Of a stretch of DNA of 64,000 nucleotides, positions 10,607 through 62,282 are shown piece after piece (position 1 is the first letter of the stretch; every line of letters starts with the position of its first letter). The notes beneath the pieces were generated by a model. It did no database searches and was not told the origin of the DNA. It worked only from the letters and a program-made list of their open reading frames with translations. The stretch comes from Candidatus Shapirobacteria bacterium (GTDB lineage Bacteria > Patescibacteriota > Microgenomatia > UBA12405). The stretch spans positions 3,318 through 67,317 of the forward strand of contig JBAZML010000002.1 in NCBI GenBank assembly GCA_041649835.1. Direction: 5' to 3'. The position numbers and the translations under genes were made by a program.

Positions 10607-10614
10607 TATAAATA
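10607..10614 (+). promoter_or_regulatory. T4-type late promoter motif TATAAATA
   Basis: Exact TATAAATA ~48 nt upstream of ORF 10656. Confidence 0.45.
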
Positions 10615-10641
10615 TTATATTTACATTTTTCCACTATATAG

Positions 10642-10649
10642 TATAAATA
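10642..10649 (+). promoter_or_regulatory. T4-type late promoter motif TATAAATA (second copy)
   Basis: Exact TATAAATA 7 nt upstream of the ATG at 10656. Confidence 0.4.
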
Positions 10650-10655: not shown

Positions 10656-11036
10656 ATGGACGACGTTTTCAATATACCAGAAGAAAAAGAGTCCCCAGAG
10701 GATTTACTAAGGGCAAACATAGAGAAAGCTAATGAAATATTAAATATAGCCATGTCTAATATTTCAGCTGGGCTGGCAACGCCGAGAATGCTAGAAGTGG
10801 CCGCCAAATTAGTGGACTCAGTTACAAACGCAGCAGAAAAATTAATTGGGGCCGGGTTCGATCTAGAGAGTTTACTTTTAAAAGAGCGTTTGATAAAATT
10901 AAAAGAAAAGGAATTAATGTTGAAATCTAATACGGACGGAGTCCCAAAAACTTTGAATCAGAACATAATCGTGAGTAGCAGAGAAGACCTTCTAAAGCTA
11001 TTTCAATCTAAAAAGGGGAATGAGAATGATGAATGA
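10656..11036 (+). CDS. hypothetical acidic/helical protein, first gene of PrkA operon
   Basis: 126-aa ORF overlapping PrkA start. Confidence 0.4.
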   Translation: MDDVFNIPEEKESPEDLLRANIEKANEILNIAMSNISAGLATPRMLEVAAKLVDSVTNAAEKLIGAGFDLESLLLKERLIKLKEKELMLKSNTDGVPKTLNQNIIVSSREDLLKLFQSKKGNENDE

Positions 11037-12975: not shown

Positions 12976-12976
12976 G

Positions 12977-14305
12977 GTAAAACATATGTCGATAGTTGTC
13001 CATGATTCTTGGGATCTTTCTGAAAAGTGTAGAAAAGATCGCCAACGCCATAATGAGAAAGTAGATAAGGCTATACGTGATGCTGCTAGAGATACTTTAG
13101 CTGATGAATCTATTATCACTAAACGTGGCGAACGTACTGTAAGAATCCCGGTAAAGGGTCTTAAGGAATGGAGATTTATTTTCGACCATAACCAAAAAGG
13201 AAAGAAAATTGGTGGAGCAGGCCAAGGTAAAATAAAGCCTGGAGATACGATAGCAAAAAAGAATCTAGATCAAGAAGGTAAAGCTGGAAATCAACCTGGA
13301 GAAGATATTATAGAAGTAGATGTGTCTCTAGAATATCTTCTCGAAATTATGTTTGAAGAACTAGGTTTACCTAATCTAGAAGACAAAGAAAAGATCGAGA
13401 ATTTAGTTTCTGCGGGATTTAAATTTGATTCTATAGCTAAAAAGGGTATTCATTCTCAGTTACATAAAAAGAAAACTATCCTAGAAAGTATCAAAAGATT
13501 TGCTGCAGATATACGAGAACTTATGTTAGCCGGGAAGTGTTCAGAAGATGATGCAAAAAGAGCCTACTACCAAGCTAAACATGATCTTAAAAAGGCTTTA
13601 AAAATAATTTTAACAAACTCTATTGATAAGTATATCGACCCTAATTTAATGAATCCTATGATTAATGATGAGGATCTTAGATTTAGGAGGGTAGAAGAGA
13701 ATTTTATTCCTCAAAGTAGGGCTGTAGTAATTTTAATGTGTGATTCTTCAGGTAGTATGGGACAAGAAAAGAAGTATTTAATGAGATCCTTATTTTTTTG
13801 GCTCACACAATTTGTCAGACAATGTTATGAATATGTGGAAATAAGGTTTATAACACATGATACAACAGCGAAGCTTGTGGACGAGGATGAATTCTTTAAG
13901 AAAGGAGAATCCGGGGGTACTTATTGTTATACAGCTTTTGAAATGGCGAATCATTTATTGCAAACTGTGTATCCTGTAGAAGCCTGGAACGCCTTTTGTT
14001 TATACTGCAGTGACGGTGACTCATGGGATGTGAAAAAAGATATAGCGGCTTTAAATCATCTTATAGATTCCGGACTAAGTTTGTTTGGGTACTATGAAAC
14101 TCATCCATCAGAAGTTAGGTTCTATGGATTTGATGATGGGGAACTACTCTCAGACATTATAGACGAATTTGATCTTAAAATTTTGGATATAGGTAAAAAT
14201 CAAGAGTTCTATAAAAATGTTGATAAACGAATGGTCGCAGGTATAATAAGAAGTAAAGAAGATGTATTTCCAGCACTCAAAGCTACTCTATATGGAAAGA
14301 GGTGA
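12977..14305 (+). CDS. yhbH: YhbH/YeaH-family protein (DUF444, vWA-like)
   Basis: N-terminal MSIVVHDSWDL...QRHNEKV as in YhbH; MCDSSGSMG MIDAS-like motif; start 2 nt after prkA stop. Confidence 0.85.
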   Translation, partial: VKHMSIVVHDSWDLSEKCRKDRQRHNEKVDKAIRDAARDTLADESIITKRGERTVRIPVKGLKEWRFIFDHNQKGKKIGGAGQGKIKPGDTIAKKNLDQEGKAGNQPGEDIIEVDVSLEYLLEIMFEELGLPNLEDKEKIENLVSAGFKFDSIAKKGIHSQLHKKKTILESIKRFAADIRELMLAGKCSEDDAKRAYYQAKHDLKKALKIILTNSIDKYIDPNLMNPMINDEDLRFRRVEENFIPQSRAVVILMCDSSGSMGQEKKYLMRSLFFWLTQFVRQCYEYVEIRFITHDTTAKLVDEDEFFKKGESGGTYCYTAFEMANHLLQTVYPVEAWNAFCLYCSDGDSWDVKKDIAALNHLIDSGLSLFGYYETHPSEVRFYGFDDGELLSDIIDEFDLKILDIGKNQEFYKNVDKRMVAGIIRSKEDVFPALKATLYGKR

Positions 14306-14308
14306 TAT

Positions 14309-14401
14309 ATGATAGGATTTATTTTAGGGTTATTAGGGGGTTTATTCGTCGGTCATTTTTTAAGTAAAATGCTTCAAAAACTGTTAAATAAAGAGAGGTG
14401 A
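14309..14401 (+). CDS. small hydrophobic peptide (30 aa)
   Basis: MIGFILGLLGGLFVGHFL...; below ORF-track cutoff. Confidence 0.25.
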   Translation: MIGFILGLLGGLFVGHFLSKMLQKLLNKER

Positions 14402-14404
14402 TTT

Positions 14405-14533
14405 ATGATTATTGACTGGTACAGGTTCGGCTTCTTTTGTCTTTGTTTATTTGGGTCATTCTTTGCTAGTGGTATTCATGGAATTATTTGGTTTATGGCA
14501 GGAATAACTTACGTAAATATATGTGAGAGTTAA
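14405..14533 (+). CDS. small hydrophobic peptide (42 aa)
   Basis: MIIDWYRFGFFCLCLFGSFFASGIHGIIWFMAG... Confidence 0.25.
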   Translation: MIIDWYRFGFFCLCLFGSFFASGIHGIIWFMAGITYVNICES

Positions 14534-14535
14534 AG

Positions 14536-15030
14536 ATGAAAAAATGTGAACTATGTGGGGAGACTAGGATATTTCAGGACGATCCTACTGATAATGGATA
14601 TAATTTTGTGGTCTTTTGTTGTTATTCTCAATATCATATAGAATTAAATGGAACACAAAAATTAATACATCAAGGTACCTTATGTAAAGACTTTATGTTA
14701 TATAAACTTAAAAATTCTAGTCCGCATAATGAGTTATCAAACTCTGAAGCAGAAAGGCTTGCGTGGCTTCTCGAAGAACTTGGAGAAGTACAACAAGCAA
14801 TAGGTAAAGTACAACAAGCAATAGGTAAAATACTTAGACATGGATATGATAGCAAATGGCCTCCTGATATAGGACCCTCAAATAGAGATAATTTAGAAAA
14901 AGAAATAAGAGATGTTATCAAGGTGTTAAGATTAATGGACAGATTTACAGATATTAATCTTATGAAAATCGAGAACTCAGTAACAGATGACTACTCTAGA
15001 TGTTATCTACATCACCAGGATCTATCATGA
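14536..15030 (+). CDS. MazG-like nucleotide pyrophosphohydrolase-like protein with N-terminal zinc ribbon
   Basis: CELCGE N-terminus; LLEELGEVQQAIGK ... NLEKEIRDVIKVL resembles all-alpha NTP-PPase EExxE/ExxD helices; contains in-frame 21-bp tandem duplication. Confidence 0.4.
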   Translation: MKKCELCGETRIFQDDPTDNGYNFVVFCCYSQYHIELNGTQKLIHQGTLCKDFMLYKLKNSSPHNELSNSEAERLAWLLEELGEVQQAIGKVQQAIGKILRHGYDSKWPPDIGPSNRDNLEKEIRDVIKVLRLMDRFTDINLMKIENSVTDDYSRCYLHHQDLS

Positions 15031-16481
15031 AACTGCAAGAAACTCAACGTCTTATTAAAATTGAAGAAAAAATTAAGCAAATCGCCTCTGAGGAGCTCGG
15101 CTTAACTTTTCCTAACATTGAGTTCGATTGTATTCCGGCAGAGAAGATGATCGAAATCATGGCTTGTAGAGGTCCTTCCCAAATATCTCATTGGTCTTAT
15201 GGAAAGAACTATGAAAAAATTAAAACAATCTATAATGAAATTACCCCCGATCTTCCTTATGAAGTTGTTATTAATTCTCTTCCACCAAGAGCATATCTTC
15301 TTAATAAGAATACCTTAGCAGTTCAGGCCTTGGTCATTGCTCATGTTTATGGACACGTTCATTTCTTTACCAAAAGTAAATTCTTTTCTAAACATAGAAG
15401 AGATATTATAGAACTCATGTCCAATGCCTCTGATAGGTTTAGTAAATACGAAAAGAAATATGGTATTGAAAACGTAGAACCCATTATTGATGCTGGGCTG
15501 GCTTTACAACAACATGTTAATCCTTATGACGAAGAGACTGAAGAACAGAAAAGAGAACGAGTTTATGAGCACCATAAAAAGAAAATGCAACCATTTTCTC
15601 ATGAGTTCTCAGATCTGATTAACACCAATGACCGAGACCGAAATCTTGATATAGAAGCGTATAATAGTCAATTGCGGCTAGCTCTTAAAAATCTAATTCC
15701 AGTAGAGCCAACGGAGGATATTCTACGGTTTATTATTGATAATTCTAGAAACCTTGATGATTGGGAAAAGGATATACTCGAAATTATTAGGGAAGAGGGT
15801 ATGTACTATCACCCAGTTATTAAGACAAAAACAATTAATGAGGGATTTTCCGTCTTTGTGCACCAAAAGATTATGCAAAGACTTTTTGAGTTAAAATTGC
15901 TTACCCAAGAAGAACACGGTCAATACGCGGTAAGTAATTCTCTAGTAAAAGCTCAATCTATGTTTTCCATTAATCCTTATCTAGTAGGGTCTAAGATGTT
16001 AGAAGATATTGAAGACAGATGGAATAAGGGCAAATTTGGAAAAGAATGGGAGAATTGCGAAAATATAACAATAAAAAAGAGTTGGAATAAGAATCTAGGT
16101 TTGGGTTGGAAAAAGGTTTTAGATGTATGTGAATCTTATAATGATTGGTTGTTTATGCAAGATTTTTTAACTACAGACTTAATAGAAGAGTTGGAATTAT
16201 TTATTTATCAGCAGATAGAGACCAGGGACGAAATTAGATTAGTTAGAACAGAACATACTCTAGAAGAGATTAAACAAATGATTTTAATGAGTTATGCTTT
16301 GTCTTATACCCCTAAAATAGAGGTTATAGAAGGAAGAAAAGAATTAATTTTAAGGCATGAATATTTTGGAAATAATCTAGATACTAAATATGCTATGGAG
16401 ACTATAAAACATGTAACAAGACTCTGGGGAGATAAAGTCTTGTTACATACTAGAGATGGAGAAGTTGAATTGGTTTTGTAG
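15027..16481 (+). CDS. spoVR: SpoVR/YcgB-family protein
   Basis: MKLQETQ...CIPAEKMIEIMACRGPSQISHWSYGKNYEKIK..., IAHVYGHVHFF, NEGFSVFVHQKIM all match SpoVR landmarks; ATGA overlap with preceding gene. Confidence 0.85.
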   Translation: MKLQETQRLIKIEEKIKQIASEELGLTFPNIEFDCIPAEKMIEIMACRGPSQISHWSYGKNYEKIKTIYNEITPDLPYEVVINSLPPRAYLLNKNTLAVQALVIAHVYGHVHFFTKSKFFSKHRRDIIELMSNASDRFSKYEKKYGIENVEPIIDAGLALQQHVNPYDEETEEQKRERVYEHHKKKMQPFSHEFSDLINTNDRDRNLDIEAYNSQLRLALKNLIPVEPTEDILRFIIDNSRNLDDWEKDILEIIREEGMYYHPVIKTKTINEGFSVFVHQKIMQRLFELKLLTQEEHGQYAVSNSLVKAQSMFSINPYLVGSKMLEDIEDRWNKGKFGKEWENCENITIKKSWNKNLGLGWKKVLDVCESYNDWLFMQDFLTTDLIEELELFIYQQIETRDEIRLVRTEHTLEEIKQMILMSYALSYTPKIEVIEGRKELILRHEYFGNNLDTKYAMETIKHVTRLWGDKVLLHTRDGEVELVL

Positions 16482-16482: not shown

Positions 16483-16716
16483 CTATTTAGCAACCCACCC
16501 AGTATTACTAATTCCAGACTCTTTTACATAAAGCGAAGTATTGGCCCCACCATCCGACCTAAGATATAAACTGCCTGGAACGGCCACAATAATTCCTTCT
16601 GGAGAGCCAGTTCCCCCAGTAATTATCATATCTGTTCCGTTTATTTCAATTTTATTAGATAAAGTTATTTTATCATTACTTGCGCTAGTTAAAATATTAA
16701 CATTTAGTGTGCTCAT
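16483..16716 (-). CDS. hypothetical protein
   Basis: 77-aa ORF at 3' end of late operon. Confidence 0.3.
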   Translation of the reverse strand: MSTLNVNILTSASNDKITLSNKIEINGTDMIITGGTGSPEGIIVAVPGSLYLRSDGGANTSLYVKESGISNTGWVAK

Positions 16717-17006
16717 TCAGTATACTCCATAATTAGATTTCCATTTTCCATTTTAGCTCTATATAATCTTCCAAGGAAAGAATTACCAGAAATAGGGTCT
16801 GTGCCGGCCCCTTTATCTTTCCATTTAGCCCCAATAGCCACCCAGTCGCCAAACGCAATCGTTCCGCCCACATACACAACCTCTTCATCCTCTACGAATA
16901 TTACCCTAGCAACATCATCTATAGTCCATATAGGCAAAGTAGGCACGTTCTGGATCCAAAGTTTTCCCACAAAGTAAAGGCCGTGGCTTTTTGTCGCGAG
17001 ACTCAT
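16713..17006 (-). CDS. hypothetical protein
   Basis: 97-aa ORF, overlapping stops/starts. Confidence 0.3.
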   Translation of the reverse strand: MSLATKSHGLYFVGKLWIQNVPTLPIWTIDDVARVIFVEDEEVVYVGGTIAFGDWVAIGAKWKDKGAGTDPISGNSFLGRLYRAKMENGNLIMEYTE

Positions 17007-17203
17007 AGTAGTCCACCTTCAATCAAAAATTCTTGTAGTCTCTTCAATTTTTTATCCCTCACAGGTCTATCATTTTCTATTAAATTCGTAAGAATTTGGT
17101 AGTCTTCTTCAGTATAGACCTCTTTCCTTTCATCCATTTCTTTAATTCTGTTTTCCTGAATCTTTATGTTAGAAACTAGATCAAATAAAGACTTTGTGGT
17201 CAT
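17003..17203 (-). CDS. hypothetical protein
   Basis: 66-aa ORF. Confidence 0.3.
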   Translation of the reverse strand: MTTKSLFDLVSNIKIQENRIKEMDERKEVYTEEDYQILTNLIENDRPVRDKKLKRLQEFLIEGGLL

Positions 17204-17691
17204 TTTCTTTTAATCCCCTTCATTTGATTAGTCCTAAAGTGTGCAGCAACTCTTCTCTGCGTTAACATGTTAAAGTCTTTGAAATAACTCCTAACAACCT
17301 CTTCTTGAGCTTTATCTGGAGGAATATATTCAAGCCCACGAATATAGTAGACAGGCGAATAAAAATACCTCCGAATCACTTCTTTCATATAGGGGTATTG
17401 AGTTTTTACTCTGTCCCAAGTTAACTTAACATTCCCCTTATTTCTAAGCATTTCCGCCATCCAGGTTTCTACAAACTTTGCTCTAGTTCCGCGCGGCAGA
17501 TAATTCAAATTTATAGCTTGGTGGAATCTCCATTGTCTTCCTGTTGTCGGATGTCTCCCAGATAAACTGTTTAAATACAAAATAACGGGAGAAGGATCAT
17601 GTTCGAAAGCTTGATATGAAAATTTATACAAATTCCCAGATTGAAGTGTTACTCCTCCCTGCTTAAAGTTGTAGTGTACTTTTAAGGCCAC
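17200..17691 (-). CDS. hypothetical protein
   Basis: 163-aa ORF. Confidence 0.35.
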   Translation of the reverse strand: MALKVHYNFKQGGVTLQSGNLYKFSYQAFEHDPSPVILYLNSLSGRHPTTGRQWRFHQAINLNYLPRGTRAKFVETWMAEMLRNKGNVKLTWDRVKTQYPYMKEVIRRYFYSPVYYIRGLEYIPPDKAQEEVVRSYFKDFNMLTQRRVAAHFRTNQMKGIKRK

Positions 17692-17694
17692 CTT

Positions 17695-18150
17695 CTACCT
17701 CAATAATAAATCTATTCTATTAACAATATTCTTATCATCCCAGAGCTTTTTTCTTAATAAAACCCCAGCAGCTATTCCAGCCAGCCCTATTCCTATTTTT
17801 GTAGCTTTTGATACTTGGCCGCTTGAAGCTTCTCCAGTTTCTGCCCATTTAGCAAAGCTTTCACAGTTATTAAAAATTATGTTATATTCCGTTTTTTCTT
17901 TTAGTCTTGTGTATACCCTAGATAAGATCATAAACACAGAATCTCTATTTGGAGAATTTTCTACGACTTTCTTTCCACCGCGAAGAAATTCTTCCATTGT
18001 GGATTTTATAACTATTCCGTTCTTCTTAGTTAATACATGGGCATCTCCATAGTGAACAACTTTTTCTCCACGCACTTCTATTCCATGATGCCAATATATC
18101 GGTATCTTGGCTACTTTTCGTAAGACTTTAATATGATCGCCCACAGCCAT
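17695..18150 (-). CDS. permuted papain-like NlpC/P60 (LRAT/YaeF-like) protein with C-terminal membrane anchor
   Basis: His-box WHHGIEVRGEKVVHYG followed by NCESF (NCEHF-like Cys motif) in the permuted H...C order; C-terminal IGIGLAGIAAGVLL helix. Confidence 0.5.
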   Translation of the reverse strand: MAVGDHIKVLRKVAKIPIYWHHGIEVRGEKVVHYGDAHVLTKKNGIVIKSTMEEFLRGGKKVVENSPNRDSVFMILSRVYTRLKEKTEYNIIFNNCESFAKWAETGEASSGQVSKATKIGIGLAGIAAGVLLRKKLWDDKNIVNRIDLLLR

Positions 18151-18159
18151 TTAAAATCC

Positions 18160-18555
18160 TTACTTTAATTTAGTATAGTCTATCGCAGATAGTTCATTTT
18201 CTACTGCGTCTTCATAGTCAGGCATATCAAACAGCTCTTTTTTGATCCCGGCATGCTTATGTTGTTGCTTTAAATACATAAGAAAAGCATTTCTACATAT
18301 TGTAGTTATATACGCAAAAGCATTTGTTGTTTTTTCTGTATTAAAATTATACAAATATTTGCAACAGGTTAACAAAGCCTCGGCAACCATATCTTCTCTA
18401 TATGTGTAACCTGCAAATCTTCCACTACATCCTAAATTTGTCGCAATATCAAAAATCATAGAACCCAAATTCTCTGACATCTTTCCGCTTTCTTTATAAA
18501 GTTTTAATTCTTCTAATAGATCCTTATTTTTCACATAAAATTTAGCATTTGCCAT
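18160..18555 (-). CDS. T4 gp55-like late-transcription sigma factor
   Basis: KFYVKNKDLLEEL and FAGYTYREDMVAEALLTCCKYLYNFNTEKTTNAFAYITTICRNAF align with T4 gp55 ([61 protein letters not shown]). Confidence 0.75.
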   Translation of the reverse strand: MANAKFYVKNKDLLEELKLYKESGKMSENLGSMIFDIATNLGCSGRFAGYTYREDMVAEALLTCCKYLYNFNTEKTTNAFAYITTICRNAFLMYLKQQHKHAGIKKELFDMPDYEDAVENELSAIDYTKLK

Positions 18556-18565
18556 TGTTCACCTT

Positions 18566-20254
18566 TTAGAAGTTTGTTGTGCTTACCCTACGCCATTTAT
18601 TGGTATCAAAACAAAGATAGACATAGGACCCATCCCAGCATATTTGTCCAGCATATCCTGCTGCGGCTGAAGTTGCTGGAGTTTTAGAAGTTCTGATTCT
18701 TATACTATCATCAATAACATCCAATGGAGCGGTAGGAGTAGTATTTTGTCCCAACACTAACCATCCATCTCCCCTTAATTTAGCTGCTGATGCTTCTAAT
18801 GTGTTAGTATAAGTAGTTGTCCACTTATAATCACCCGTTCCTAAAGAATACGTAGTAGCAAATTTAGGTCTTAAAGAAAGGTCGAATATACCAGAAGTAG
18901 AAAGGCTGCTTACTTGAAAGTCTCCTAAAGAAGTGGTTTCGAGGTCTGAATATATCCCAGTGCTGTATAATAACCTTAATTGTGGCCCAGCTGCATCTAC
19001 AATTTCGAATTTTCTTGTACCAGCAGAATTTCCTACAACAACTCTATTATTTGTTGAATCTATAAATAAGGTATTAGTATCAAAATTTAAACTATTAGGA
19101 ATACTTACAGTTCCAGCATTTATCGTTACACTATCGCCGATAACATCTCCGAGAATAGTATTTCCAGATACAGTTAGAGTTCCAGTTTTAACACTAGTAT
19201 CTGCGTAAAAAGTTCCTGTAGAAATATTTGTAGCTTCAAGATTTACTGTAAATATTGATGTACTAGATCTTAATATACTAAAATACCCAGCTGCCCCTAC
19301 TGTTTGTCCTATAATTATGTTGTCAATATACCCGCCATCTAAATTTACATTTATAGAATTTAAATTTGTTATGGTGCCATTAGTTACGGTTCCTAAATTT
19401 GTTATATTAGCCGTAGTAATGTTAGCTGTGGTGATGTTAGCTGTAGTTAAAGTAGCTAACGTAGAGGCTAGAGTCGCTATAGTTCCAGTTGTTATATTAG
19501 CTGTAGTTAAAGTAGCTAACGTAGAGGCTAGAGTCGCTATAGTTCCGGTTGTAGCTATTAAAGTAGTAAAAGTTCCTGCAGCTGGAACCGCTCCACCTAT
19601 AATGGTTCCATCTATAGCACCACCATTAATGTCAACCAGAGGAATCTGAACGGCCCCGGTTGAATTAAGAATGGTTAAACCATTAACACTGTTGTAATTA
19701 GATATGTTTAGATCTGTTGCACTTCTTCCACGAATAAAGGCTGCTAATATTGAGTATGTTGGACCAATGTCCCAATTTCCTGTTAATAATCTGCTACCAT
19801 TGGTTTTTAGATATTGAGTATGTTCATCTACAGACACATCGGTTTTGTGATCTTGCCACCCCTTTGCTAGAGCGTTATTTACAACCTTACTATAATATTC
19901 ACTAGTAGAATTAGTATCTACACTTCTTCTTGTAACATCAAAAAGCTGCAAATTATCAAGATTTCCAGCGGTTATTCCGCTCCCAGACCAGGTTATTTTA
20001 AAGAGTCTTTGATACTCATAACCATACGTTGATCCACCTTCTTCCAAATCAGCAACAAAAAATTCAAAATATCCATTTGCATCAGTAATTATTGGGGTTG
20101 CATATGAGGTTGTAGGAGACCCAGCTTGTGTTATGTATATATTGGCGTATGTAGCTGAACCTCCGGCCAGAGGATACGCATAAACATGTATAATAGCCCC
20201 GGAAACAGGCTCTCCTCGATAGTTTAGCAAATAGTTATAGAACTTCGTTTTCAT
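18566..20254 (-). CDS. tail fibre protein with internal tandem repeats
   Basis: TGTIATLASTLATLTTANIT repeat, G/T/N-rich beta-rich composition, C-terminal conserved knob; downstream of baseplate genes. Confidence 0.55.
   Translation of the reverse strand: MKTKFYNYLLNYRGEPVSGAIIHVYAYPLAGGSATYANIYITQAGSPTTSYATPIITDANGYFEFFVADLEEGGSTYGYEYQRLFKITWSGSGITAGNLDNLQLFDVTRRSVDTNSTSEYYSKVVNNALAKGWQDHKTDVSVDEHTQYLKTNGSRLLTGNWDIGPTYSILAAFIRGRSATDLNISNYNSVNGLTILNSTGAVQIPLVDINGGAIDGTIIGGAVPAAGTFTTLIATTGTIATLASTLATLTTANITTGTIATLASTLATLTTANITTANITTANITNLGTVTNGTITNLNSINVNLDGGYIDNIIIGQTVGAAGYFSILRSSTSIFTVNLEATNISTGTFYADTSVKTGTLTVSGNTILGDVIGDSVTINAGTVSIPNSLNFDTNTLFIDSTNNRVVVGNSAGTRKFEIVDAAGPQLRLLYSTGIYSDLETTSLGDFQVSSLSTSGIFDLSLRPKFATTYSLGTGDYKWTTTYTNTLEASAAKLRGDGWLVLGQNTTPTAPLDVIDDSIRIRTSKTPATSAAAGYAGQICWDGSYVYLCFDTNKWRRVSTTNF
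19441..19560. repeat. 60-bp direct tandem repeat x2 (one mismatch) inside tail fibre gene, flanked by degenerate ANITT-encoding copies
   Basis: 19441-19500 and 19501-19560 identical except a/g at ~19546. Confidence 0.8.
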
Positions 20255-20269
20255 AGGTGTACCTGCAGT

Positions 20270-20277
20270 TATTTATA
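20270..20277 (-). promoter_or_regulatory. T4-type late promoter motif (TATAAATA on minus strand)
   Basis: tatttata on plus strand 15 nt upstream of fibre ATG; overlaps stop of upstream gene. Confidence 0.35.
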
Positions 20278-23200
20278 AATTTTTATTGATTCTATAGAAG
20301 CTCGTTATATCGAAATTGGATACTTTATATAGTTCACTTTTGATATACGTATAGAACATAAGTTCATCATCCTCATTAAAAAGCCCCATTTCGGTTATAG
20401 TAGTTTCCTCTTTATTACCATTGAAAAACCCCTTAATATAATATTTATTAGAGTCTTCAGTAATTATTAAATCGTAAATATACGAACTTATTAAGGTATT
20501 TTTCAGAGCATTATTTCCTATAGCATCATAGTTTTCAGTTGAAGCCCCGTTTCCGATCTCGATATATCCGTTTGACAAAGATTCTATTACATATTCTTTA
20601 GTATATAGTCCACCTAGACATGTTACAAAAGCGTATCCTGACTTTTGCTCTTCAAGAGTAATAGTAATCTGTTTTTTATCTCGAAACAAAGTTATTGTTT
20701 TTGGGAATATTTGTTTTAGTTCGTCATCATAAAGTTGAACTAGTACTCCCTTATGATCCAGGGTATGAGTTATAATCCATTCTGTAGAAGCAACAGATTG
20801 TACATATAGATAGTCACTATTTCTAATTTGGCAATATCCTAAAGTTGGTACATACCACGTAGAAGTCATTTGATCCACTTCTGTTATGCTAACATTAGAT
20901 GGCAACATTTGTTCTTTGTCTAAATAGAAGTAATAATCTGAGAGAACTGCACTAGTTTCTTGAGAATGAGTAAATCCCCAAGAAGCAGAAGCTTCATATG
21001 TATTTGTTAAGGTTTCTTTGGCGGCTCCTATTAGACAAAGACCAGAAAATGGAGAATCAAATTCTATAGAAACATTATTAGTATCTATTATTTTTACAGA
21101 AAGAGGAAATACCATTTCATAGGTATTATCATAACATTGTACTAAAACATTCTCTGTATTTAGACCATGAAATATGCTCCATTTAGAAGTTGGAACATAT
21201 TTTCTGTAAATGAACCCGGCAGAAGTAGACTCAGTATCTACACAACAATATGTATAGAAGTCGGCAACATTTCCGTATATATCATCATATGTTTTAATAG
21301 TTTCTTCACTAAAATCTGTTATTGGAGAAAGCAATAAAGAGTAATGAGAGTATTTGGAAGCCGGTCTAGAGACTTCAAGCTGATCATAAAGCATTAAAGC
21401 GTAATCTCTATTAAGAATATCTCTATCACATAAAGGCTCACAATTAAGGTCTATTTCAGCCTTATAATGCGGACTCATTAATAGACCGTCAGCATATGTT
21501 AATTGTCCTACTTCTCTTAGAATGGCCATGCCTGAAGCAGAGCTGGCAAAAGACGCTGTGACATTGTCTTTATCCACAGCTTGAAAATTCTCTGGGCTTC
21601 CTTGAAATAAAGTAGTACACACAGAATCAGCTATTCCGCAGGCAACATACCCAATGGCCGAAGTAGGAAATGTAACAACGATATTATTCTCGTCTACTAT
21701 TTCGACCTCAGGTGTATTATCTTTTACTGTAGGAATGAAACTTTGCTCTGCTACATAGATGATAACATCACCAGAAGTAGGGGTATTAAATAATATATTT
21801 GTCCAATTTTTATTATACAAATGTAATTCATCTGGAATAATCTCTATTCCACCACTATAAACTCTAACAACAATCTCATAATTGTCTAAATAGTGTTCTA
21901 CCCACCAACAAGCACTTGGAATCGTTTGAGTATATGTAAATACTGATTGATCATGATCTATTTGATATGTATTAATAAATATTTGTTCTGCTGCGGATAA
22001 AGAAACTGAAATAGTATCTGTTGACGCGCTAGCTGAAATAGTATTAAGCAGTCTTCTATTTAAATCATATACTTGAATAAAAAGGTTAGAAGAAGAGTAC
22101 TCGTTCATTAATTGAAATACAGTATTGTCTATTCCAGAATAAATGTTTGTAATAATATTCAAAGAATTAAGGTTGTGATTTATGTTCCAAATATTTGAAC
22201 GATATAAGAAGGCTTCAACATAATCTGGAATAGCCACTTCTAAATACCCAGCAAATGGATATGTAGAACTTAAGGCTAAGGTATTAGTATATATTGGTCT
22301 AATGTCTAGATCATTTACCGCGTTATAGTCGGTATCATATGCTTGAAGTAATTGGACGTCTCCACCACTAACAGTATAAGTGGACATCCAACCAGAGGAT
22401 AAAGGCAAAGTTAATGTTTCATCGGCTTCTAATAGAAAAATTCTGCCATTTTCTTCGCTAGCAAAGTTTACTTTCACAACATCATTTGTTATATTATATA
22501 AAGAAGAACAATTTGTTGTGGCTTCGCCCTCAGAATAAATTTGATATACTAAATTTTTGGAATTTAAAGTATGGGTTATGGTCCATGCAGACGTAGCCAT
22601 ACTTAAATAGAAGTCAGCCATTAATGCTTTTGAATCTAAATTATGTTCTATTTCCCATTCCATTTTGTCTATGGCTTGAATATGGAAATAGTCACCTGAT
22701 AGAGCAACAACTTGGGTACCATTATTGCTACTTATATTAGCAACTAAAATATCATTCATACCACTAGGCATTACTGTTTCAAATGTACAGATACCAGAAA
22801 TAGGAAGAGTAGTGGTATTATATGTAAAAGTTGTTGGGTAATATCCTTCTACTAATGGAGCAATTTGATTTAAATTATGAGAATGAAGTTCACTTATAGA
22901 TAGCAAAGGATTCATATACTGAGGCTTAGTTATGAGAGCAAATCCTGTAACCAGTTCATGAAATGTTAATAAAAGAGAACTAGAGTCTATACATGCAACT
23001 TCAGACGGACTAACAAGATTCATATAAGAATCAAAACATTGAATAACCGGAATCCTATCATCAAGGGAATGCGCAATATACCACCTATCAGAAGCATAAT
23101 TCTGTTTATGAATATAACAATTATCTAACGGAACATTAAACCCTTTACCAGAGGCCAGGGTATAATATTCTGCCCCTGTACAACCAACAGATAATGCATC

Positions 23201-24172: not shown

Positions 24173-24173
24173 G

Positions 24174-25931: not shown

Positions 25932-25935
25932 ATGT

Positions 25936-31496: not shown

Positions 31497-34400
31497 TTAT
31501 GGATTAAGAATTGATAATGCTAATCCCATAGTTCCCAGAACATACATATCATCAATCTCAAATGCATTAACTTGTTGCCCCTGCTGTTTACCGCCGGAAC
31601 TCATTGTTTGAGAAATGATGTTATTTGTTTGGGTAGCATTTTTACTCATTTCTCCGGGTAAATTTGAAGCGGCTTGAGCGGTGGCCTGTAAAGCTGCAGT
31701 ATTAGTTGCTTGTATTTGTGCTGTATTTAATCCTTTTTGTCGTTCCAGATCTGCAATTTGAGAAGTTGTCGTTAATCCAGTTAATGGAGATATTTTAGCC
31801 ATGTTATTCTGTTGTGCCTTACGTATATACTCTTCTGTAGATATACCACTTTTTACTGTATGCCCGGAACCATAGTCTGGGTTGTAAGACGTTTCTGCCA
31901 TAAGGGTTTTTCCAGTAGTAGGATCATAATATGCAATAGCTCCATGTCCTAGGCCCACAATAGAGTCCCCAGGCTTAATGTCTGATGCTCCATACTGCCC
32001 AGATTTTAAAAGAGTTCCAGCGTTTTTTCTAAGAAGTTCAGCAGAACCCCCGGTTGTTAGGTCTTTATATTTGGCCATTTGTTCAGGAGATAGCTGACCC
32101 GCCATAGAATCTAGTAAAGTTCTATACCCATAATTTACTAAACCAGTGCAGTCTATTTTCTTCGTTACGTTAGGATCTACTCCATGTCCACCGCCATATT
32201 CATAACCAAAGTTTTTAGAAGCATATTGTATTCCATTAAACATTGCGGTTAGAGGATCAGTACCTAGTTGAGGTCCTGTAGATTTAACACTAGGACCTCC
32301 GTATGTTTCCATTAAAAACTTTTTTGTTTCCATTGGGAGTTTACTTCTATCCATAGGGGCATTTGCTCCACCTAAAGCTCTATCTAATTTACCCTCTCCC
32401 CAATTATAAGCAGCCAGTGCTTTTTCTTTATCTCCTCCATATTTCTTCAATAGCCCAGCATAATAACTAACTCCTTTGTTAATATTTTGTTCCGGGTCAT
32501 ATGCGTTTATATTACCCGCTGTACCGGGCATAAGTTGCATAAGACCCATTGCACCTTTTGGAGAAGTTACACTAGGGTTCCAATTTGATTCTGTTTGAAT
32601 TAGTCTAGCTATATCTGCTGGGGTTATATCAGTTCTACCTGTAGCTTTAATAGCCTGATCTATAAATGGTGCATATGCTGGGTTTCTTATTATATCTGAT
32701 GCATTTGCAGGGATAGATGGTGTTCCAATCCCACCTACAATTCCACTACCCCCGCTTATAGCACCTACTGTTTGCGGAGAATTACCGCCGCCCAAAGTAT
32801 TAGTTACTTTTCCTAATACTCCCTTCCATATCTCATTTAACCATCCTACAACATCACTTCCAATACCTAAATACTTGTCTCTATTTTTATCATCGAATTT
32901 GTTTAGGTCTTTGGTCTGAACCAAATTGGCTTTGACTATGGCCTCATACATTGCATTTTCTGCACTTCCGGCTGAAGGAGATTCGCCCTTTTTTATATCT
33001 TCTTCAATCATATCTCCAACGTTTTTACCGATCCAGCCACCTATAAAGCCACCAATCATTTCTCCAGCAAAAACCCCGGCAGCAGCCCCAGCAGGGCCGC
33101 CTAGTAAAAAACCAAGACCGCCGCCAATGAGAGCCCCCGCGCCTTGCCCAGCAAAAGAACCGCCAACTGCTCCTGCAGTACCACCAACACCTTGTCCCTG
33201 AGCTGCAGCAAGTCCACCACTTAATAGAGCGCTTCCACCTCTAGTAGTAAATAACTTTTTACCGAGATTTAAACCTCCTTTTGCAATTGAACCGATTTTA
33301 CCTTTTAAATAGTCTAAACCTAAATATGAACCAATAAGAGCCGCTATATCACCAAAGTCGATTCCTCCGTCTTCTCCTGGAGGCTGGGCGCCAACAGAAC
33401 CAACCTGATTACCAAAAATTCCTTTTTTGAACTTAGCCTTTAATGTTGCTTTTGTTCTAGCATTTCTTTCGTTTTTGGCTTGTTGGGCTTCTCTATCTTT
33501 AGCCTCACGTTTTTTAATCTTTTTTAATTGATTATGTAATCTAGCTTCATCTCTTATGGAGGTATACTTAGCTAAAATAGAGTCCTTCATAGACTTTACA
33601 AAACTAAATATCTTATCTTTAAGAGACTTGTTACCTTTACCAAAAGTCTCAGCTAGGGCCTTTAAACCTCCCTTAAGTTTGCTAGCGTATTCTGAAATCG
33701 TTTTTGCTAATTTTGATTCTCCAAGTTTTTCGAAAAGGGCTTTAATTTTTTGAAATCTTTCAGAGTTGACAATACCTAAGAACTTTTCTTTAAAGAGGTC
33801 TATTTTATCTAAAACTTTAGATTTAAAATTTTTACTAAGAAACCCAGAAACCATAACAACATCTTTTATATAACCTAAAAACTTTCCAAATAGTTTAAAA
33901 TATAGAGGAAATCTAAAGAACTTACTCATGAAAAATTTTATCGGCCTAGTCATAGCAACTGCCTGTTCTCTACTAAATCCTCCGTATTTGGTTAAAACTG
34001 TTCTAGCGGCGAATCTTATTAGAAAAAACTTTATCCACCAACTAAAAATCTTTTTAACCCAACCAAAAAGTCCCTTGGCTGCATCCCACACAGCTCCTAA
34101 CTTATCTCCTAAAATTTCATGAAAATCATTCTTAACCAATTCTATCATTGAAGCAAACTTAGTTTTAATAAACTCTAAAGCTTTACCGAACACATTATAC
34201 ATAGCCACTCTAGCTGTACCAAAAACGTCGCTTTTTACTTTTCCTATAGTTTTACTAACCATTTTTTTGTATAAAGATCTACCTACATAAACCCCGATAC
34301 CAGTAGCAACAGCACCAACAAGAGTAACACCTAGATATTTTAGAAAGGATCTCTCTTGCTTTATTTTTTTGGTATAATAGACTTTTTGACTACCAGAAAT

Positions 34401-34550
34401 AGCGTTTTGTAGTTTTAGTAGATCTTTAGACGAAATTGTAGCAGGTAAAGATCCGGCTGCGATCTTTACATTTACTGCGTCAGCGGCCTTATTTGAAACC
34501 CGAACTGGAACAAGAAGGTTTCGATTTTTCACTGCGTCGACAATTGGCAT
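31497..34550 (-). CDS. tail tape-measure protein with lytic transglycosylase (SLT) and NlpC/P60 peptidase domains
   Basis: Long K-rich helical N-half, Gly-zipper segment; IQTESNWNP...GAMGLMQLMPGTAG (SLT motif); KIDCTGLVNYGY (NlpC/P60 Cys box). Confidence 0.65.
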   Translation of the reverse strand: MPIVDAVKNRNLLVPVRVSNKAADAVNVKIAAGSLPATISSKDLLKLQNAISGSQKVYYTKKIKQERSFLKYLGVTLVGAVATGIGVYVGRSLYKKMVSKTIGKVKSDVFGTARVAMYNVFGKALEFIKTKFASMIELVKNDFHEILGDKLGAVWDAAKGLFGWVKKIFSWWIKFFLIRFAARTVLTKYGGFSREQAVAMTRPIKFFMSKFFRFPLYFKLFGKFLGYIKDVVMVSGFLSKNFKSKVLDKIDLFKEKFLGIVNSERFQKIKALFEKLGESKLAKTISEYASKLKGGLKALAETFGKGNKSLKDKIFSFVKSMKDSILAKYTSIRDEARLHNQLKKIKKREAKDREAQQAKNERNARTKATLKAKFKKGIFGNQVGSVGAQPPGEDGGIDFGDIAALIGSYLGLDYLKGKIGSIAKGGLNLGKKLFTTRGGSALLSGGLAAAQGQGVGGTAGAVGGSFAGQGAGALIGGGLGFLLGGPAGAAAGVFAGEMIGGFIGGWIGKNVGDMIEEDIKKGESPSAGSAENAMYEAIVKANLVQTKDLNKFDDKNRDKYLGIGSDVVGWLNEIWKGVLGKVTNTLGGGNSPQTVGAISGGSGIVGGIGTPSIPANASDIIRNPAYAPFIDQAIKATGRTDITPADIARLIQTESNWNPSVTSPKGAMGLMQLMPGTAGNINAYDPEQNINKGVSYYAGLLKKYGGDKEKALAAYNWGEGKLDRALGGANAPMDRSKLPMETKKFLMETYGGPSVKSTGPQLGTDPLTAMFNGIQYASKNFGYEYGGGHGVDPNVTKKIDCTGLVNYGYRTLLDSMAGQLSPEQMAKYKDLTTGGSAELLRKNAGTLLKSGQYGASDIKPGDSIVGLGHGAIAYYDPTTGKTLMAETSYNPDYGSGHTVKSGISTEEYIRKAQQNNMAKISPLTGLTTTSQIADLERQKGLNTAQIQATNTAALQATAQAASNLPGEMSKNATQTNNIISQTMSSGGKQQGQQVNAFEIDDMYVLGTMGLALSILNP

Positions 34551-34576
34551 TTTAGTTATAACTCCAAAAATAAAAA

Positions 34577-34613
34577 GGTCTTAAGGATATTTATACAATA
34601 TCTCCTTAAGACC
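34577..34613 (-). promoter_or_regulatory. perfect 11-bp inverted repeat whose loop carries a TATAAATA late-promoter motif, ~38 nt upstream of tape-measure ATG
   Basis: ggtcttaagga-N15-tccttaagacc; loop tatttatacaatatc = TATAAATA on minus strand at 34588-34595. Confidence 0.5.
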
Positions 34614-34649
34614 CGAAGATCCGTTCCTTTTAAAGGAAGCGGAGGAAAA

Positions 34650-34856
34650 TTATTGAGCTGTTTTTATGTTACTTTGTGCTTGTATTTCCTCTTTAAGCTG
34701 TTTGATTACGAGATTTAGAAAAGCCTCTCTTTCAAAGTCGCTCAGCATTGCACTTTCGGTTAGTGAAATTCCGGCGTATTTACTCAAATAATATTGTTCT
34801 TCTACCAATGCCTCTATCGTTGCACCTTCCGTAACGATAGATTTTAGAATAAAAAA
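34650..34856 (-). other. -1 frame extension of tail assembly chaperone (programmed frameshift product, gpGT-like)
   Basis: Slippery heptamer T_TTT_TTA (plus strand 34850-34856 taaaaaa) at the last codons of ORF 34844..35572; -1 frame stays open for ~66 codons to the TAA at 34650-34652. Confidence 0.5.
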
Positions 34857-35572
34857 CTTTCTAAAGATATGTTGATCTCTTCCTCAGATTTGCACCCATC
34901 GCACTTCATCTTATACTTAAATTCAACTCCAAAATTAAGATTATCGAACCAATCTCTAATCTTTTCATAAAGTCCTTCGGGAATCATATTAACGAATTCA
35001 TATGCATCTTCAGCAGTTGGTACTGATTCTCCATCTGGGGTTACTATCTTTTTAATACATAGCGCGTGCGACCATAAGGCCTGATCAATCATTCTCTGTT
35101 GATATTCAAGATCTTTATTTACTTTGGTTGCTGCAACCTTCTGAACTCCACGAGTTAAAATTTGCAATTCAACCGCAATATTATCATCTAATTTTACAGA
35201 AGTATCATATTTTCCTAGCTTTTTTGTATGTAACTTACTAAGATCGATACTTTGCATTGTTTGTGAAGAACACTTGGGACAATTATATACAAATTTGTAA
35301 AGATTGCCTTTAGTTCTCCGTCTTATAGCTACAAGTAAAAAGAACCGATCTTCTAGGTATAACTCGTCAATGTTAAAACCTTCATCTACAACAGATCCAA
35401 CAATTAGATCATCTAAAGCCGTTTCTGAATCATCATCCCCAGTACCGTAGGACAAAAGCCTTTTAAGTTGAAAAGTGTTAAACGGTTTTATTTTAACTTT
35501 CTTTCCAGATCCAGGTAAAGTTTCAGAAAACTCATAACAATTTAAATACTTTTGGACATTTTCTAATGACAC
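34844..35572 (-). CDS. tail assembly chaperone (gpG-like), zinc-ribbon containing
   Basis: Position between tube and tape-measure genes; CPKCSS...CDGC; slippery site at its 3' end. Confidence 0.5.
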   Translation of the reverse strand: MSLENVQKYLNCYEFSETLPGSGKKVKIKPFNTFQLKRLLSYGTGDDDSETALDDLIVGSVVDEGFNIDELYLEDRFFLLVAIRRRTKGNLYKFVYNCPKCSSQTMQSIDLSKLHTKKLGKYDTSVKLDDNIAVELQILTRGVQKVAATKVNKDLEYQQRMIDQALWSHALCIKKIVTPDGESVPTAEDAYEFVNMIPEGLYEKIRDWFDNLNFGVEFKYKMKCDGCKSEEEINISLESFLF

Positions 35573-37998: not shown

Positions 37999-38195
37999 TG
38001 TTCAAATCTCCTTTGTCGGTGAACCGAAGGATCGTTCAGCTCACTCTTGTTTGGGTTATATGGTATAGACAACACATATTTAAAATTTTGTTTTGGGTCT
38101 AAAGGTCGGTAATTCGTACTAGAATGTTCGTCGTTAGTAGTCGTCGTTTGTATATAAGTATTTATTAAAAAATTTCAGATTTTATCAAAAAATTA

Positions 38196-52882: not shown

Positions 52883-52890
52883 TATTTATA
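52883..52890 (-). promoter_or_regulatory. T4-type late promoter motif TATAAATA upstream of the homing endonuclease gene
   Basis: tatttata on plus strand ~22 nt upstream of ATG; GGAGG RBS between. Confidence 0.4.
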
Positions 52891-55547: not shown

Positions 55548-55555
55548 TATTTATA
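55548..55555 (-). promoter_or_regulatory. T4-type late promoter motif TATAAATA
   Basis: tatttata on plus strand ~40 nt upstream of ATG 55508 with GGAGGG RBS. Confidence 0.5.
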
Positions 55556-57491: not shown

Positions 57492-57527
57492 ATGTTATTC
57501 TCCTTATAGTTTATTTATTAAAAATTT

Positions 57528-60728: not shown

Positions 60729-62282
60729 CTATATTATTGAAGGGGTATTTAACCATGTCCAATCTGCGAGATCTGTTGAATCTGTGAGGATACCCCATAC
60801 ATCATCTTCCTCTTCTTTCTTACCAAACTCAAAACTTTCATCCAATATATCTAATGTTAAAGCATATGTTGCCCAATATAGAGCTGATACTAAATCATCA
60901 TTGAGATTATTACAAGTAAATTTTCCGCTTTTCTCTGAATAGTCATTCAACTGCTCTAACGTATCACGATCCAGAAGTTCAAGACTGTAATCCTCAATCA
61001 GCTTTTTCATTAACAAAACAGCCTTAGGTTTTGTATTTCTTGTTGCTCTTATTCCTAGATCTGTGGTCTTTGATCCGCAATTATAAAGTTTTGAATATTC
61101 TAGTTCCCACCAAAGTTGATTTACCACAGCAGAACCTTCTGCATTATTTTCACAAATAATCCAAGCCCCATTATAATAAACGCCAAGACGATTAAGTATC
61201 TCTGCATATTTATATACATCCACCATATTATCGTTAAATACTGCTACCTGTTTTAACTTAATAGGTTTTAAACTTATAACCTTTAAAATTTGGGTGCTGG
61301 AATAATGTTCTCCGGTTCCTTTAGCTGTATCAGCTCCAATAACATATACACAACCATCTATAGGCTTCTCATATACAAAAAGTTTACCATTTAAGTCCTT
61401 TGTAATTGGCTGTATATATTTATTAGAAATTTGCTTTAAAACTTCTGGATCAATTACTGTAGAGATAGAGCCGACGAAGGAACATTCAAATTCTTGATTA
61501 AAGAGGACCATATCATTATTCATATTCTTAAGTTGGTCTTCTTTCCACTTCTCGTCTCTTCCTTCTACATCACTCCAGATAGTTTTATAATACTTAAATT
61601 CATTTCTGTTATTTACAGCCCCATCCCATAGTTGGCCAAATAAATTAAACAGGCCTTTTGGAGTAGAAGCTATGATAATTTTAGCATCTTTTGAAGCAGA
61701 AACAGCTGGATAGTTAGACGCCCAAAACTCAGCGGCCAGCTTATCACTGGTCAAGTGAGCGAACTCATCTAATATTAGCAGTGTAATTGTTCTCCCCCTG
61801 AAGGCTGCTTTAGAAGTTGCTGCTGTTTGTATTGTACTTCCGTTCTCAAACGTTATTGAGGTCTCGTTATACTTAGTAATTCCAGGTTTTAGTTTTTCAT
61901 CAAGTTCCTCGTACATTAGTTTTATGCGCTGGAGGAAGTCTTGAGCTGATCTTGCAGAGTTTGATCCTATAGCGACATATGAATCTGGCCTAAATATTGC
62001 ATACCAAAGAGAATAGGATCCCATAGAAACCGTTTTTCCTTGTTGGCGCCCTGAGCAAATTATTACTCTATTGTTATTTAAAACTAAATCGAAAATATCT
62101 CTTTGATATTTTCTAGGAATAAATTCTACTCTACCGTCATCAGGGTGAAGAATGGTTACATGAGATAAGAAATAGTAAAAGTCTTCAGAACATCTAGTAA
62201 GTCGATCTATATCTTCCTTAGAATATTCGAGTTCAGTATTTGGTTTTTTTATAAAACCGAATTCATCGTATTTTATTGTCAT
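60729..62282 (-). CDS. terminase large subunit (gp17-like)
   Basis: Walker A CSGRQQGKT (gp17 SRQLGKT); size; upstream of portal. Confidence 0.8.
   Translation of the reverse strand: MTIKYDEFGFIKKPNTELEYSKEDIDRLTRCSEDFYYFLSHVTILHPDDGRVEFIPRKYQRDIFDLVLNNNRVIICSGRQQGKTVSMGSYSLWYAIFRPDSYVAIGSNSARSAQDFLQRIKLMYEELDEKLKPGITKYNETSITFENGSTIQTAATSKAAFRGRTITLLILDEFAHLTSDKLAAEFWASNYPAVSASKDAKIIIASTPKGLFNLFGQLWDGAVNNRNEFKYYKTIWSDVEGRDEKWKEDQLKNMNNDMVLFNQEFECSFVGSISTVIDPEVLKQISNKYIQPITKDLNGKLFVYEKPIDGCVYVIGADTAKGTGEHYSSTQILKVISLKPIKLKQVAVFNDNMVDVYKYAEILNRLGVYYNGAWIICENNAEGSAVVNQLWWELEYSKLYNCGSKTTDLGIRATRNTKPKAVLLMKKLIEDYSLELLDRDTLEQLNDYSEKSGKFTCNNLNDDLVSALYWATYALTLDILDESFEFGKKEEEDDVWGILTDSTDLADWTWLNTPSII

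Follow-up and report, generated by a model that had tools for sequence, protein, structure and literature searches.

The 64,000-nt window analysed here (positions 3,318 to 67,317 of contig JBAZML010000002.1, assembly GCA_041649835.1, listed under Candidatus Shapirobacteria bacterium) comes from a distant, uncultivated T4-like myovirus that runs a T4-type late transcription programme, and it contains, between the genes for a baseplate-hub-family protein and a tape-measure-like protein, a terminator-shaped RNA hairpin, H2, that has a late-promoter box in its loop. The reading that we favour, with a probability of roughly 0.6, is that H2 is a terminator or attenuator with a nested late promoter, which restarts transcription for the tape-measure and baseplate genes. 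Support for it comes from the homology of one gene of the window to gp55, the T4 late sigma factor, from the non-random placement of the boxes, from the conservation at the RNA level of H2 and of a companion hairpin, H1, and from the conservation of the box within the loop. The features of the region are listed below in the order in which they are transcribed; L002 and L005 are related loci found through homologues of the hub protein (91% and 74% identity, respectively).

34844..35572, minus strand: hub/assembly gene, PF12322 T4_baseplate (Pfam E=1.3e-22; PHROG_150 baseplate hub)
34650..34856, minus strand: putative -1 frameshift site T_TTT_TTA at 34850-34856 and extension open reading frame (ORF) of ~64 aa (from the sequence and homologous loci)
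34563-34644, minus strand: two-hairpin element, H1-H2-U-tract (covariance model R1, 70 bits, E=6e-12)
34621..34641, minus strand: hairpin H1 (99% paired, double changes in 6 of 7 pairs)
34576..34614, minus strand: hairpin H2, 12-bp stem and 4-bp upper stem, terminator-shaped (folding, covariation)
34588..34595, minus strand: TATAAATA box within the H2 loop, 37 nt upstream of the tape-measure-like gene (exact match; L002 and L005)
34566..34576, minus strand: U-tract UUUUUAUUUUU directly after H2 (T-run after H2 in essentially all relatives)
34562-34565 and 34548-34550, minus strand: ribosome-binding site (RBS) GGAG and ATG of the tape-measure-like gene (from the sequence)
31497..34550, minus strand: tape-measure-like protein with an SLT lytic transglycosylase domain (PHROG/Pfam)

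The hairpin ahead of the tape-measure gene

The inverted repeat ggtcttaagga/tccttaagacc is exact over 11 bp at 34577-34587 and 34603-34613, and its 15-nt loop contains the box, just as the original prediction had described it. Folded as minus-strand RNA, H2 has an energy of -18.4 kcal/mol (z=-4.9), with a lower stem of 12 bp and a 4-bp upper stem that includes the last four bases of the box. Along the minus strand the order is GGGUCUUAAGGA-gauauugUAUAAAUA-UCCUUAAGACCU, then UUUUAUUUUU, GGAG and, 11 nt later, the AUG. With a stable stem placed directly before a U-run, H2 and the U-tract have the form of an intrinsic terminator, at which transcripts arriving from upstream would be expected to end. 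The built-in terminator scan missed H2 because its loop exceeds the 8-nt limit of that scan.

Both L002 and L005 keep the hairpin, the U-tract and an intact TATAAATA (8/8) in the loop. Within the stem, L002 shows a double change from T:A to C:G and L005 a G·U pair, and the other loop bases differ (gauauug, gaaug, gaguag), with six additional bases separating the box from the 3' arm in L002. The earlier proposal that this DNA could act both as a terminator for read-through from the upstream genes and as a late promoter for the tape measure is supported by these compensatory stem changes and G·U pairs, by the conserved U-tract and by the retention of the loop box in three lineages.

The RBS of the tape-measure gene is located outside H2, beyond the 11-nt U-tract. 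This position bears on the possibility that H2 is a translational block of the T4 gene e, soc and I-TevI type, which would hide the tape-measure RBS on long transcripts and leave it free on late ones. Blocks of this kind are well documented in T4 (PMC3014915, PMC2988022), and they occur in the clade: in L009, a TATAAATA box lies in the loop and the RBS in the 3' arm of a hairpin upstream of the ortholog of window gene 60729..62282, and the same shape is found in L013 upstream of an ORF truncated at the end of the contig. In the window, however, the RBS pairs only weakly with a distant segment in the minimum-energy fold, and across the family it always follows the U-tract, so that a translational block appears very improbable here. 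Sequestration of the RBS by H2 itself was rejected, since the RBS lies outside the hairpin.

In the mechanism that we propose, the gp55-type sigma factor would direct the host RNA polymerase core to 8-bp (T/A)ATAAATA boxes, with no need for a -35 element, while H2 and its U-tract would end or attenuate transcripts that arrive from the sheath, tube and hub genes, which code for proteins required in large numbers. T4 late promoters lack a -35 element and consist of an 8-bp TATA box, which precedes the start by about one helical turn (PMC2988020), and no -35-like hexamer is found upstream of the 34588 box. This box is located at the 3' edge of the H2 loop, and transcription would start, by the T4 rules, ~6 nt downstream, inside the 3' arm (TCCTTA^AGACC). 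A late transcript could not form H2, because it would lack the 5' arm; it would run through the U-tract and allow expression of gp55 itself as well as of the tape-measure, baseplate and tail-fibre genes. The predicted 31-nt late leader is essentially unstructured (-0.3 kcal/mol), with the RBS free. The tape-measure-like gene is the first in an ~18-kb tightly packed minus-strand block (34550 to 16483) that ends beyond gp55, and the 34588 box is the sole intergenic promoter candidate ahead of these genes.

The gp55-type sigma factor and its boxes

18160..18555, minus strand: gp55-type late sigma factor gene, 131 aa (PHROG_234, PDB 7d7c, tblastn)

The assignment of ORF 18160..18555 to gp55, made at first from an alignment with the T4 protein, was borne out by the searches. 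The ORF matches PHROG_234, 'late sigma transcription factor', with E=1.3e-30, and gp55 chain 7d7c_F of the T4 late transcription complex with E=3.4e-11 over T4 residues 38-143; in tblastn it shows 34-40% identity with annotated gp55 genes of T4-like phages, and among the 1785 phage records that match it those listed carry a gp55 or late sigma factor annotation. The sole Pfam signal is that of Sigma70_r2, which at 21.7 bits is just under the 24-bit cut-off, as is expected for so divergent a family, and no Pfam match to sigma region 3 or 4 was found in the 131 aa. The alignment with the 160-aa gp55 of cyanophage S-SSM7 spans the protein from end to end. The C-terminus of the window protein, ...ENELSAIDYTKLK (...AIDYTKLK), is aligned with ...SDYNSIK in S-SSM7 gp55 and ...FDFLQQ in that of Vibrio phage F86, the D being invariant, and may represent the hydrophobic/acidic C-terminal epitope by which the gp55 family binds the sliding clamp (PMC2988020).

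The gp55 gene is located close to the distal end of the tightly packed structural block 16483-34550 (minus strand), 10 nt after the tail-fibre gene, and a search upstream of it rendered no recognisable early-type or clear sigma70 promoter. Directly downstream there is an LRAT/NlpC-P60-like gene (17695-18150, minus strand; Pfam LRAT E=3.5e-17), followed by the gene for a gp2-like DNA end protector.

The positions and strands given originally for the exact TATAAATA matches held for all 11 of them. Five are intergenic and in sense orientation to the next gene, against 0.86 expected, and only 3 of 2000 dinucleotide shuffles of the same intergenic regions (6.7% of the window according to the curated gene list) reach that number; the remaining boxes lie within genes, and three of these are on the wrong strand. 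Among the 58 boxes of 11 related head-module loci (found via the capsid protein), 29 are sense-intergenic, against 3.5 ± 1.8 expected from a first-order Markov model, a figure that none of 1000 simulations reached, and the reverse complement of TATAAATA occurs only 6 times. The boxes in those loci are typically situated 16-56 nt upstream of start codons. This strand and position bias, found in the window and very strong in the relatives, supports the use of TATAAATA-type boxes as putative late promoters.

The working consensus of the box is (T/A)ATAAATA, since AATAAATA variants stand where relatives carry TATAAATA; two of these variants in the window, at 57512 and 38159, had been overlooked when only the exact TATAAATA was listed. 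The variation at position 1 resembles the NATAAATA form reported for T4-like cyanophages. Besides 34588, the sites considered individually are the following:

55548..55555, minus strand: TATAAATA box 39 nt upstream of a 137-aa head gene that precedes the scaffold gene (L007 ortholog)
52883..52890, minus strand: TATAAATA box 21 nt upstream of a 206-aa treble-clef (homing-endonuclease-like) ORF
57512..57519, minus strand: AATAAATA variant 20 nt upstream of a 63-aa gene between the portal and protease genes
38159..38166, minus strand: AATAAATA variant 160 nt ahead of the sheath gene, with a conserved leader after it
10607..10649, plus strand: two TATAAATA boxes (10607 and 10642), 41 and 6 nt ahead of ORF 10656
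20270..20277, minus strand: TATAAATA overlapping the stop codon of a 1299-aa gene, 15 nt before the tail-fibre ATG

The boxes 34588, 55548 and 52883, together with the variants 57512 and 38159, are good late-promoter candidates. In L007, which has 91% identity in the major capsid protein, the site orthologous to 55548 is likewise TATAAATA, and the one orthologous to 57512 is also TATAAATA; at the homologous position of 38159, L002 has AATAAATA and L005 has TATAAATA, the leader being conserved from the box onward. In the original prediction all the boxes had been placed at typical distances upstream of late genes with an RBS, which holds for 34588, 55548 and 52883, the only ones followed by a GGAG-type RBS, but not for the tail fibre or the PrkA operon, where the RBS is lacking and a box lies 15 nt (tail fibre) or, for one of the two PrkA-operon boxes, 6 nt from the ATG. 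A promoter at 20270 is doubtful, the predicted leader of the tail-fibre gene being too short to hold an RBS. The PrkA-operon boxes 10607 and 10642 are also doubtful as late promoters. ORF 10656 is the first gene of a PrkA-DUF444-SpoVR block (10656-16481, plus strand, in which PrkA, DUF444 (YeaH) and SpoVR were confirmed), and an early-type promoter for the divergent gene overlaps the region of the two boxes. The second of them ends 6 nt before the ATG, and a transcript starting from it might be leaderless.

The box at 52883 is in sense orientation, 21 nt ahead of the homing-endonuclease-like ORF, and is followed by an RBS, and in L011 a related ORF has a TATAAATA box upstream as well; the class of the 52883 box is ambiguous, however, because TTTACA-N16 precedes both this box and the one at 10642, so that both might just as well serve as -10 elements of the sigma70 type. 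The 206-aa treble-clef zinc-finger ORF itself (52241-52861, minus strand) follows the capsid gene, as its relative does in L011, while other relatives are located between the hub extension and the tape-measure gene (L092 and L094); these varied positions suggest a mobile, homing-endonuclease-like gene. After the major capsid gene there is also a strong, terminator-like hairpin (52925-52974, minus strand), whose stem, GCCUCUAAGUGA...UCACCUGGAGGC, is followed by the U-run UUUUUCUUUG; the GCCUCUAAGUGA arm resembles the H2 consensus, and the TATAAATA box of the next ORF is located ~35 nt further on. With respect to the sheath gene, its leader of ~150 nt (37999-38166 in the window, minus strand) begins right after the (T/A)ATAAATA box, is near-identical in L002 and recognisable in L005, and contains a covarying hairpin just ahead of the RBS.

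The two-hairpin element in related phages

The hairpin between the hub and tape-measure genes does not stand alone: it forms one half of a widely conserved two-hairpin element, which mostly lacks a box in the loop. The structure-dependent switch that had also been suggested is for this reason no more than a possibility. After L002 and L005, eighty more loci were collected (the loci are L002, L005 and L020-L098); the hub and major capsid proteins found relatives, while the tape-measure protein alone, used as a query, found none in viral contigs. MAFFT and RNAalifold applied to the raw alignment misplaced the 3' arm of H2 and rendered only H1 and a short GGAUC:GGUCU helix, and a covariance model, R1, was for this reason built from 12 sequences with a hand-specified structure. 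The R1 search rendered 76 matches, 59 of them distinct, and the element, ~75 nt long, is represented by about 55 distinct sequences from uncultivated T4-like metagenomic phages. The window contains one full-length copy; the listing also has a partial match of 23 bits to the other strand of this palindrome.

The consensus of the element comprises H1 (yCrCUUAG...CUAAnGGAUC), a short spacer, H2 (GGUCUnAAGrG...CyCUUnAGACC) and a U-run, directly after which comes the RBS of the next gene. Counted on the model-fitted alignment, 96.4% of the cells are paired family-wide, against 22-50% in slid controls, and 16 of 17 pairs show double changes, a number as high as which was found in none of 500 shuffles; for H2 alone, 94.7% are paired, with double changes in all 10 pairs and common G·U pairs. 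The many G·U and U·G pairs point to the element acting as RNA, on the gene strand. They also speak against a role of the inverted repeat as DNA, whether the palindrome were an operator bound by a dimeric protein or a cruciform that helps the promoter to open. Conserved arm sequences (GGTCTnAAG / CTTnAGACC) would fit such a role, and supercoiling of the DNA raises the activity of T4 late promoters (PMC2988020); but neither DNA nor the opposite strand could accommodate the frequent G·U pairs (U·G 11 and 7; G·U 8 and 7) other than as mismatches, the spacing of the arms varies from 4 to >30 nt among relatives, which is unfit for a fixed dimer site, and the conserved T-tract is found on one side only. 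The palindrome or operator was rejected on account of the G·U pairs and the variable spacing, and of all the alternatives considered in this work a DNA-level role is the one to which we give least credit.

No match to Rfam was found at gathering thresholds in the whole window, with only noise (E>=0.18) at 34400-34900, and R1 detected no copy behind the hub gene in any of Pelagibacter phage HTVC008M, Synechococcus virus S-PRM1 or marine virus AG-345-O18. In most loci the element separates the hub extension ORF from the tape-measure gene; six lineages have it directly after the tube gene, instead or additionally, and in three loci weak matches to the full model (E 0.04-0.1) appear just after the major capsid gene. 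These positions are those where terminators following abundant structural genes are expected.

The survey of boxes covered all 59 R1 matches listed, a few of them weak or on the opposite strand. A box is present in the H2 loop of the window, L002, L005, L045 and L059, and L037 has one at the same site, but in the loop of another terminator-like stem. Across all loci, (T/A)ATAAATA was found 10 times in the loop of a hairpin followed by a T-tract, as compared with one occurrence of its reverse complement.

Several observations weigh against the nested promoter. The exact TATAAATA is no more frequent in the window than in shuffled sequence (11 matches versus 14.2 ± 3.9), so that of the two signs that would have marked it as a spurious motif, a background frequency and a lack of strand or position bias relative to genes, the first was found and the second was not, the placement being non-random. 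The sequence just downstream of the 34588 box, TCCTTAAGACC, is not AT-rich, while T4 late promoters favour an AT-rich segment at that place (PMC2988020). As many as 44 of the 59 listed matches were scored as lacking (T/A)ATAAATA in or near the element (a count that includes the window and L045, which are true loop cases), and because relatives without the box, which are the majority, must reach their downstream genes by read-through, H2 cannot be a tight terminator and must be leaky. About 660 nt of pooled AT-rich loop sequence would be estimated to contain roughly one box by chance, and hence its presence in the loop in four independent lineages is only a moderate enrichment. Homologues of gp33 and gp45, the search for which had been suggested along with the gp55 assignment, gave no PHROG match among the 30 screened ORFs outside the structural blocks of the window, which is part of the genome. 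Moreover, promoter activity, the start site and termination at 34588/H2 are all inferred.

It could be the case, as the background count, the 44 matches lacking a box and the composition downstream of 34588 would allow, that the loop TATAAATA is not a working promoter but an AT-rich match due to chance or descent, and that the tape measure is expressed by partial read-through of H2 alone; the box common to the window, L002 and L005 would then represent a single evolutionary event, these lineages being related. Against this, the box is identical at 8 of 8 positions in three lineages whose loops differ in their other bases and in length, remaining intact in L002 although displaced by 6 nt; it recurs in unrelated stems and lineages (L037, L045, L059), with the strand asymmetry of 10 to 1; and the intergenic boxes of the clade are overwhelmingly in sense orientation upstream of structural genes. 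We therefore regard a non-functional box as improbable, although not to the degree of the translational block.

A different objection to the nested promoter arises from the 11 R1 matches in which (T/A)ATAAATA is located 9-25 nt upstream of H1. Three of the six tube-gene elements have the box upstream of H1, the other three having CATAAATA or GATAAATA. A box upstream of H1 puts the whole element in the late leader, and for this reason an attenuator or a small RNA fits these cases better than a plain terminator. The element could accordingly be a regulated leader, namely an attenuator in which GGAUC, 3' of H1, pairs with GGUCU at the 5' end of H2, or a small RNA of ~85 nt, the loop box being a lineage-specific bypass; the small RNA would have its own late promoter where the box precedes H1, and elsewhere would be the 3' end of the upstream mRNA. 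The sequence of the stems is conserved beyond pairing (CGCUUAG..CUAAnGGAUC; GGUCUnAAGG), which plain terminators would not need, and the 11 elements with an upstream box show the order promoter, two hairpins and U-tract. The GGAUC:GGUCU helix is possible in 93% of the cells, one of its pairs covarying (CG 32, UG 12, UA 8), no Rfam family corresponds to the element, and the element is tightly tied to the RBS of the next gene. On the other hand, the alternative helix has just 5 bp, two of them G·U, as compared with the 11-12 bp of the terminator stem; its covariation is barely above controls, with 125 of 500 shuffles attaining the same 2 doubly changed pairs; no ligand or protein partner has been identified; and the conservation of the stems could stem from common descent or from recombination between copies, as occurs with PeSL cassettes (PMC4122927). 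Taken in this specific form we find the regulated leader or small RNA unlikely, although less so than a box without function.

A broader proposal, which we put forward tentatively and find somewhat easier to entertain, is that H1, H2 and the U-tract make up an undescribed, family-specific structured RNA (a regulated attenuator, or a small RNA derived from the 3' untranslated region or made from its own late promoter) that would set the expression of abundant tail or head proteins relative to that of the following gene, late promoters having been recruited to it repeatedly, either upstream of H1 or in the H2 loop.

The phage and known regulatory systems

The window is 34% GC and densely packed with genes. 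Structural genes are located on the minus strand at 16.5-38 kb and 52-64 kb, and the plus strand mostly carries unknown or DNA-metabolism genes. Matches to PHROG and Pfam identify the sheath, the tube, a PF12322 T4_baseplate hub-family protein, the tape-measure-like protein with its SLT domain, the portal, the prohead protease, the scaffold, the major capsid protein and the gp2-like DNA end protector. The major capsid protein has at most ~37% identity with those of T4-like phages (Pelagibacter phage HTVC008M and cyanophages), the protein identity to the nearest cultured relatives is only about 25-37%, and a near-identity DNA search against isolated phages rendered no match. This phage, or contigs almost identical to it, is present in the samples SRR8542065, ERR3094273, ERZ27247773 and JGI 3300009169.

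The ORF upstream of the hairpin had been described as a chaperone frameshift ORF. The frameshift extension is conserved, but the gene belongs to the PF12322 T4_baseplate hub family. A run of T6-T10 is found 1-3 codons ahead of the stop of the hub gene, and an extension of ~60 aa in the -1 frame is present in 57 of 57 distinct homologous loci; in the +1 frame the median opening is 1 codon. In the window the extension ORF ends just ahead of H1. The T-run and the extension make up a putative programmed -1 frameshift, conserved and situated just ahead of the tape-measure gene, in the manner of lambda G/GT; a literature search on frameshifting in the gp26 family rendered nothing specific.

Between the tube and hub genes there is a near-consensus sigma70-type promoter (35607-35634, minus strand; TTTACA-N16-TATAAT with an upstream TG, 11 of 12 matches), at whose place L002 and L005 hold a gene for a 550-aa DUF7487 protein. 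In addition, the motif GTTTCAGAAA-N14-TGTTATAATAAACTAAAACTTTGGAGG is found upstream of non-structural genes, with 6 matches against 0.15 expected:

9954-9983 (minus), 10571-10600 (minus), 38196-38225 (plus), 39759-39788 (plus), 45250-45279 (plus) and 47764-47793 (plus): copies of GTTTCAGAAA-N14-TGTTATAATAAACTAAAACTTTGGAGG

It is probably the early promoter of the phage, with an unusual element in the -35 region and a conserved leader and RBS.

The late system resembles that of T4 in that the window encodes a gp55 homologue, whose core is like sigma region 2 and which lacks region 4, together with an 8-bp (T/A)ATAAATA in sense orientation upstream of structural genes, with no -35-like hexamer ahead of the 34588 box. 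It differs in the size of gp55 (131 aa versus 185 in T4), which is closer to that of the cyanophage protein (160 aa), in that the gp33 co-activator and the gp45 sliding clamp were not found among the ORFs screened in the 64-kb window, and in the location of the gp55 gene at the far end of the structural block, with no recognisable early-type promoter nearby. A gp55/TATAAATA system is textbook T4 biology and is expected in a distant T4-like phage, and the new part is the proposed arrangement of a promoter in the loop of a terminator.

Late promoters located in DNA that encodes a hairpin, from which late transcripts arise without the 5' arm, have been described for e, soc, I-TevI, segB and mobE (PMC3014915, PMC2988022). 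The H2 arrangement shares with the hairpins of T4 e, soc, I-TevI and segB and of Aeh1 mobE the nested late promoter, late transcripts escaping a structure that read-through transcripts form, and the exact T4-style version, which sequesters the RBS, is the one found in L009 and L013. H2 differs from it in that it has no RBS, is followed by a U-tract and carries the box in its loop, so that the escape would be from termination or attenuation and not from a block of translation. PeSL cassettes, which consist of a stem-loop and an early sigma70-type promoter and occur as many repeats in hyperplastic regions, are likewise compact terminator/promoter modules with a sequence conserved within a phage group (PMC2839356, PMC4122927), and the proposed arrangement would be a nested form of such composite cassettes. 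The element of the window, in contrast, has a late box in the loop, two hairpins and a single copy, and is located in a conserved tail module; the early motif of the window (GTTTCAG-N-TATAAT) is separate in sequence from it. With intrinsic terminators and anti-terminator leaders the element has in common a stable stem and a U-run after genes for abundant proteins, as well as a possible competing helix, but it differs from intrinsic terminators in the additional conserved H1, the conserved stem sequences, the putative promoter located in the loop or just upstream, and the lack of a known regulator.

Because an 8-bp promoter fits in the loop of a terminator, one stretch of ~40 nt can end one transcription unit and start the next. 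If the nested promoter is real, the arrangement would separate the genes whose products are needed in hundreds of copies, such as those for the sheath and the tube, from those whose products are needed in a few, such as the tape measure and the baseplate, and it would extend the T4 logic of a late promoter inside a hairpin from translational control to the control of termination. The two-hairpin element is in turn a candidate for a new cis-regulatory RNA, and is the part of this work most worth following up.

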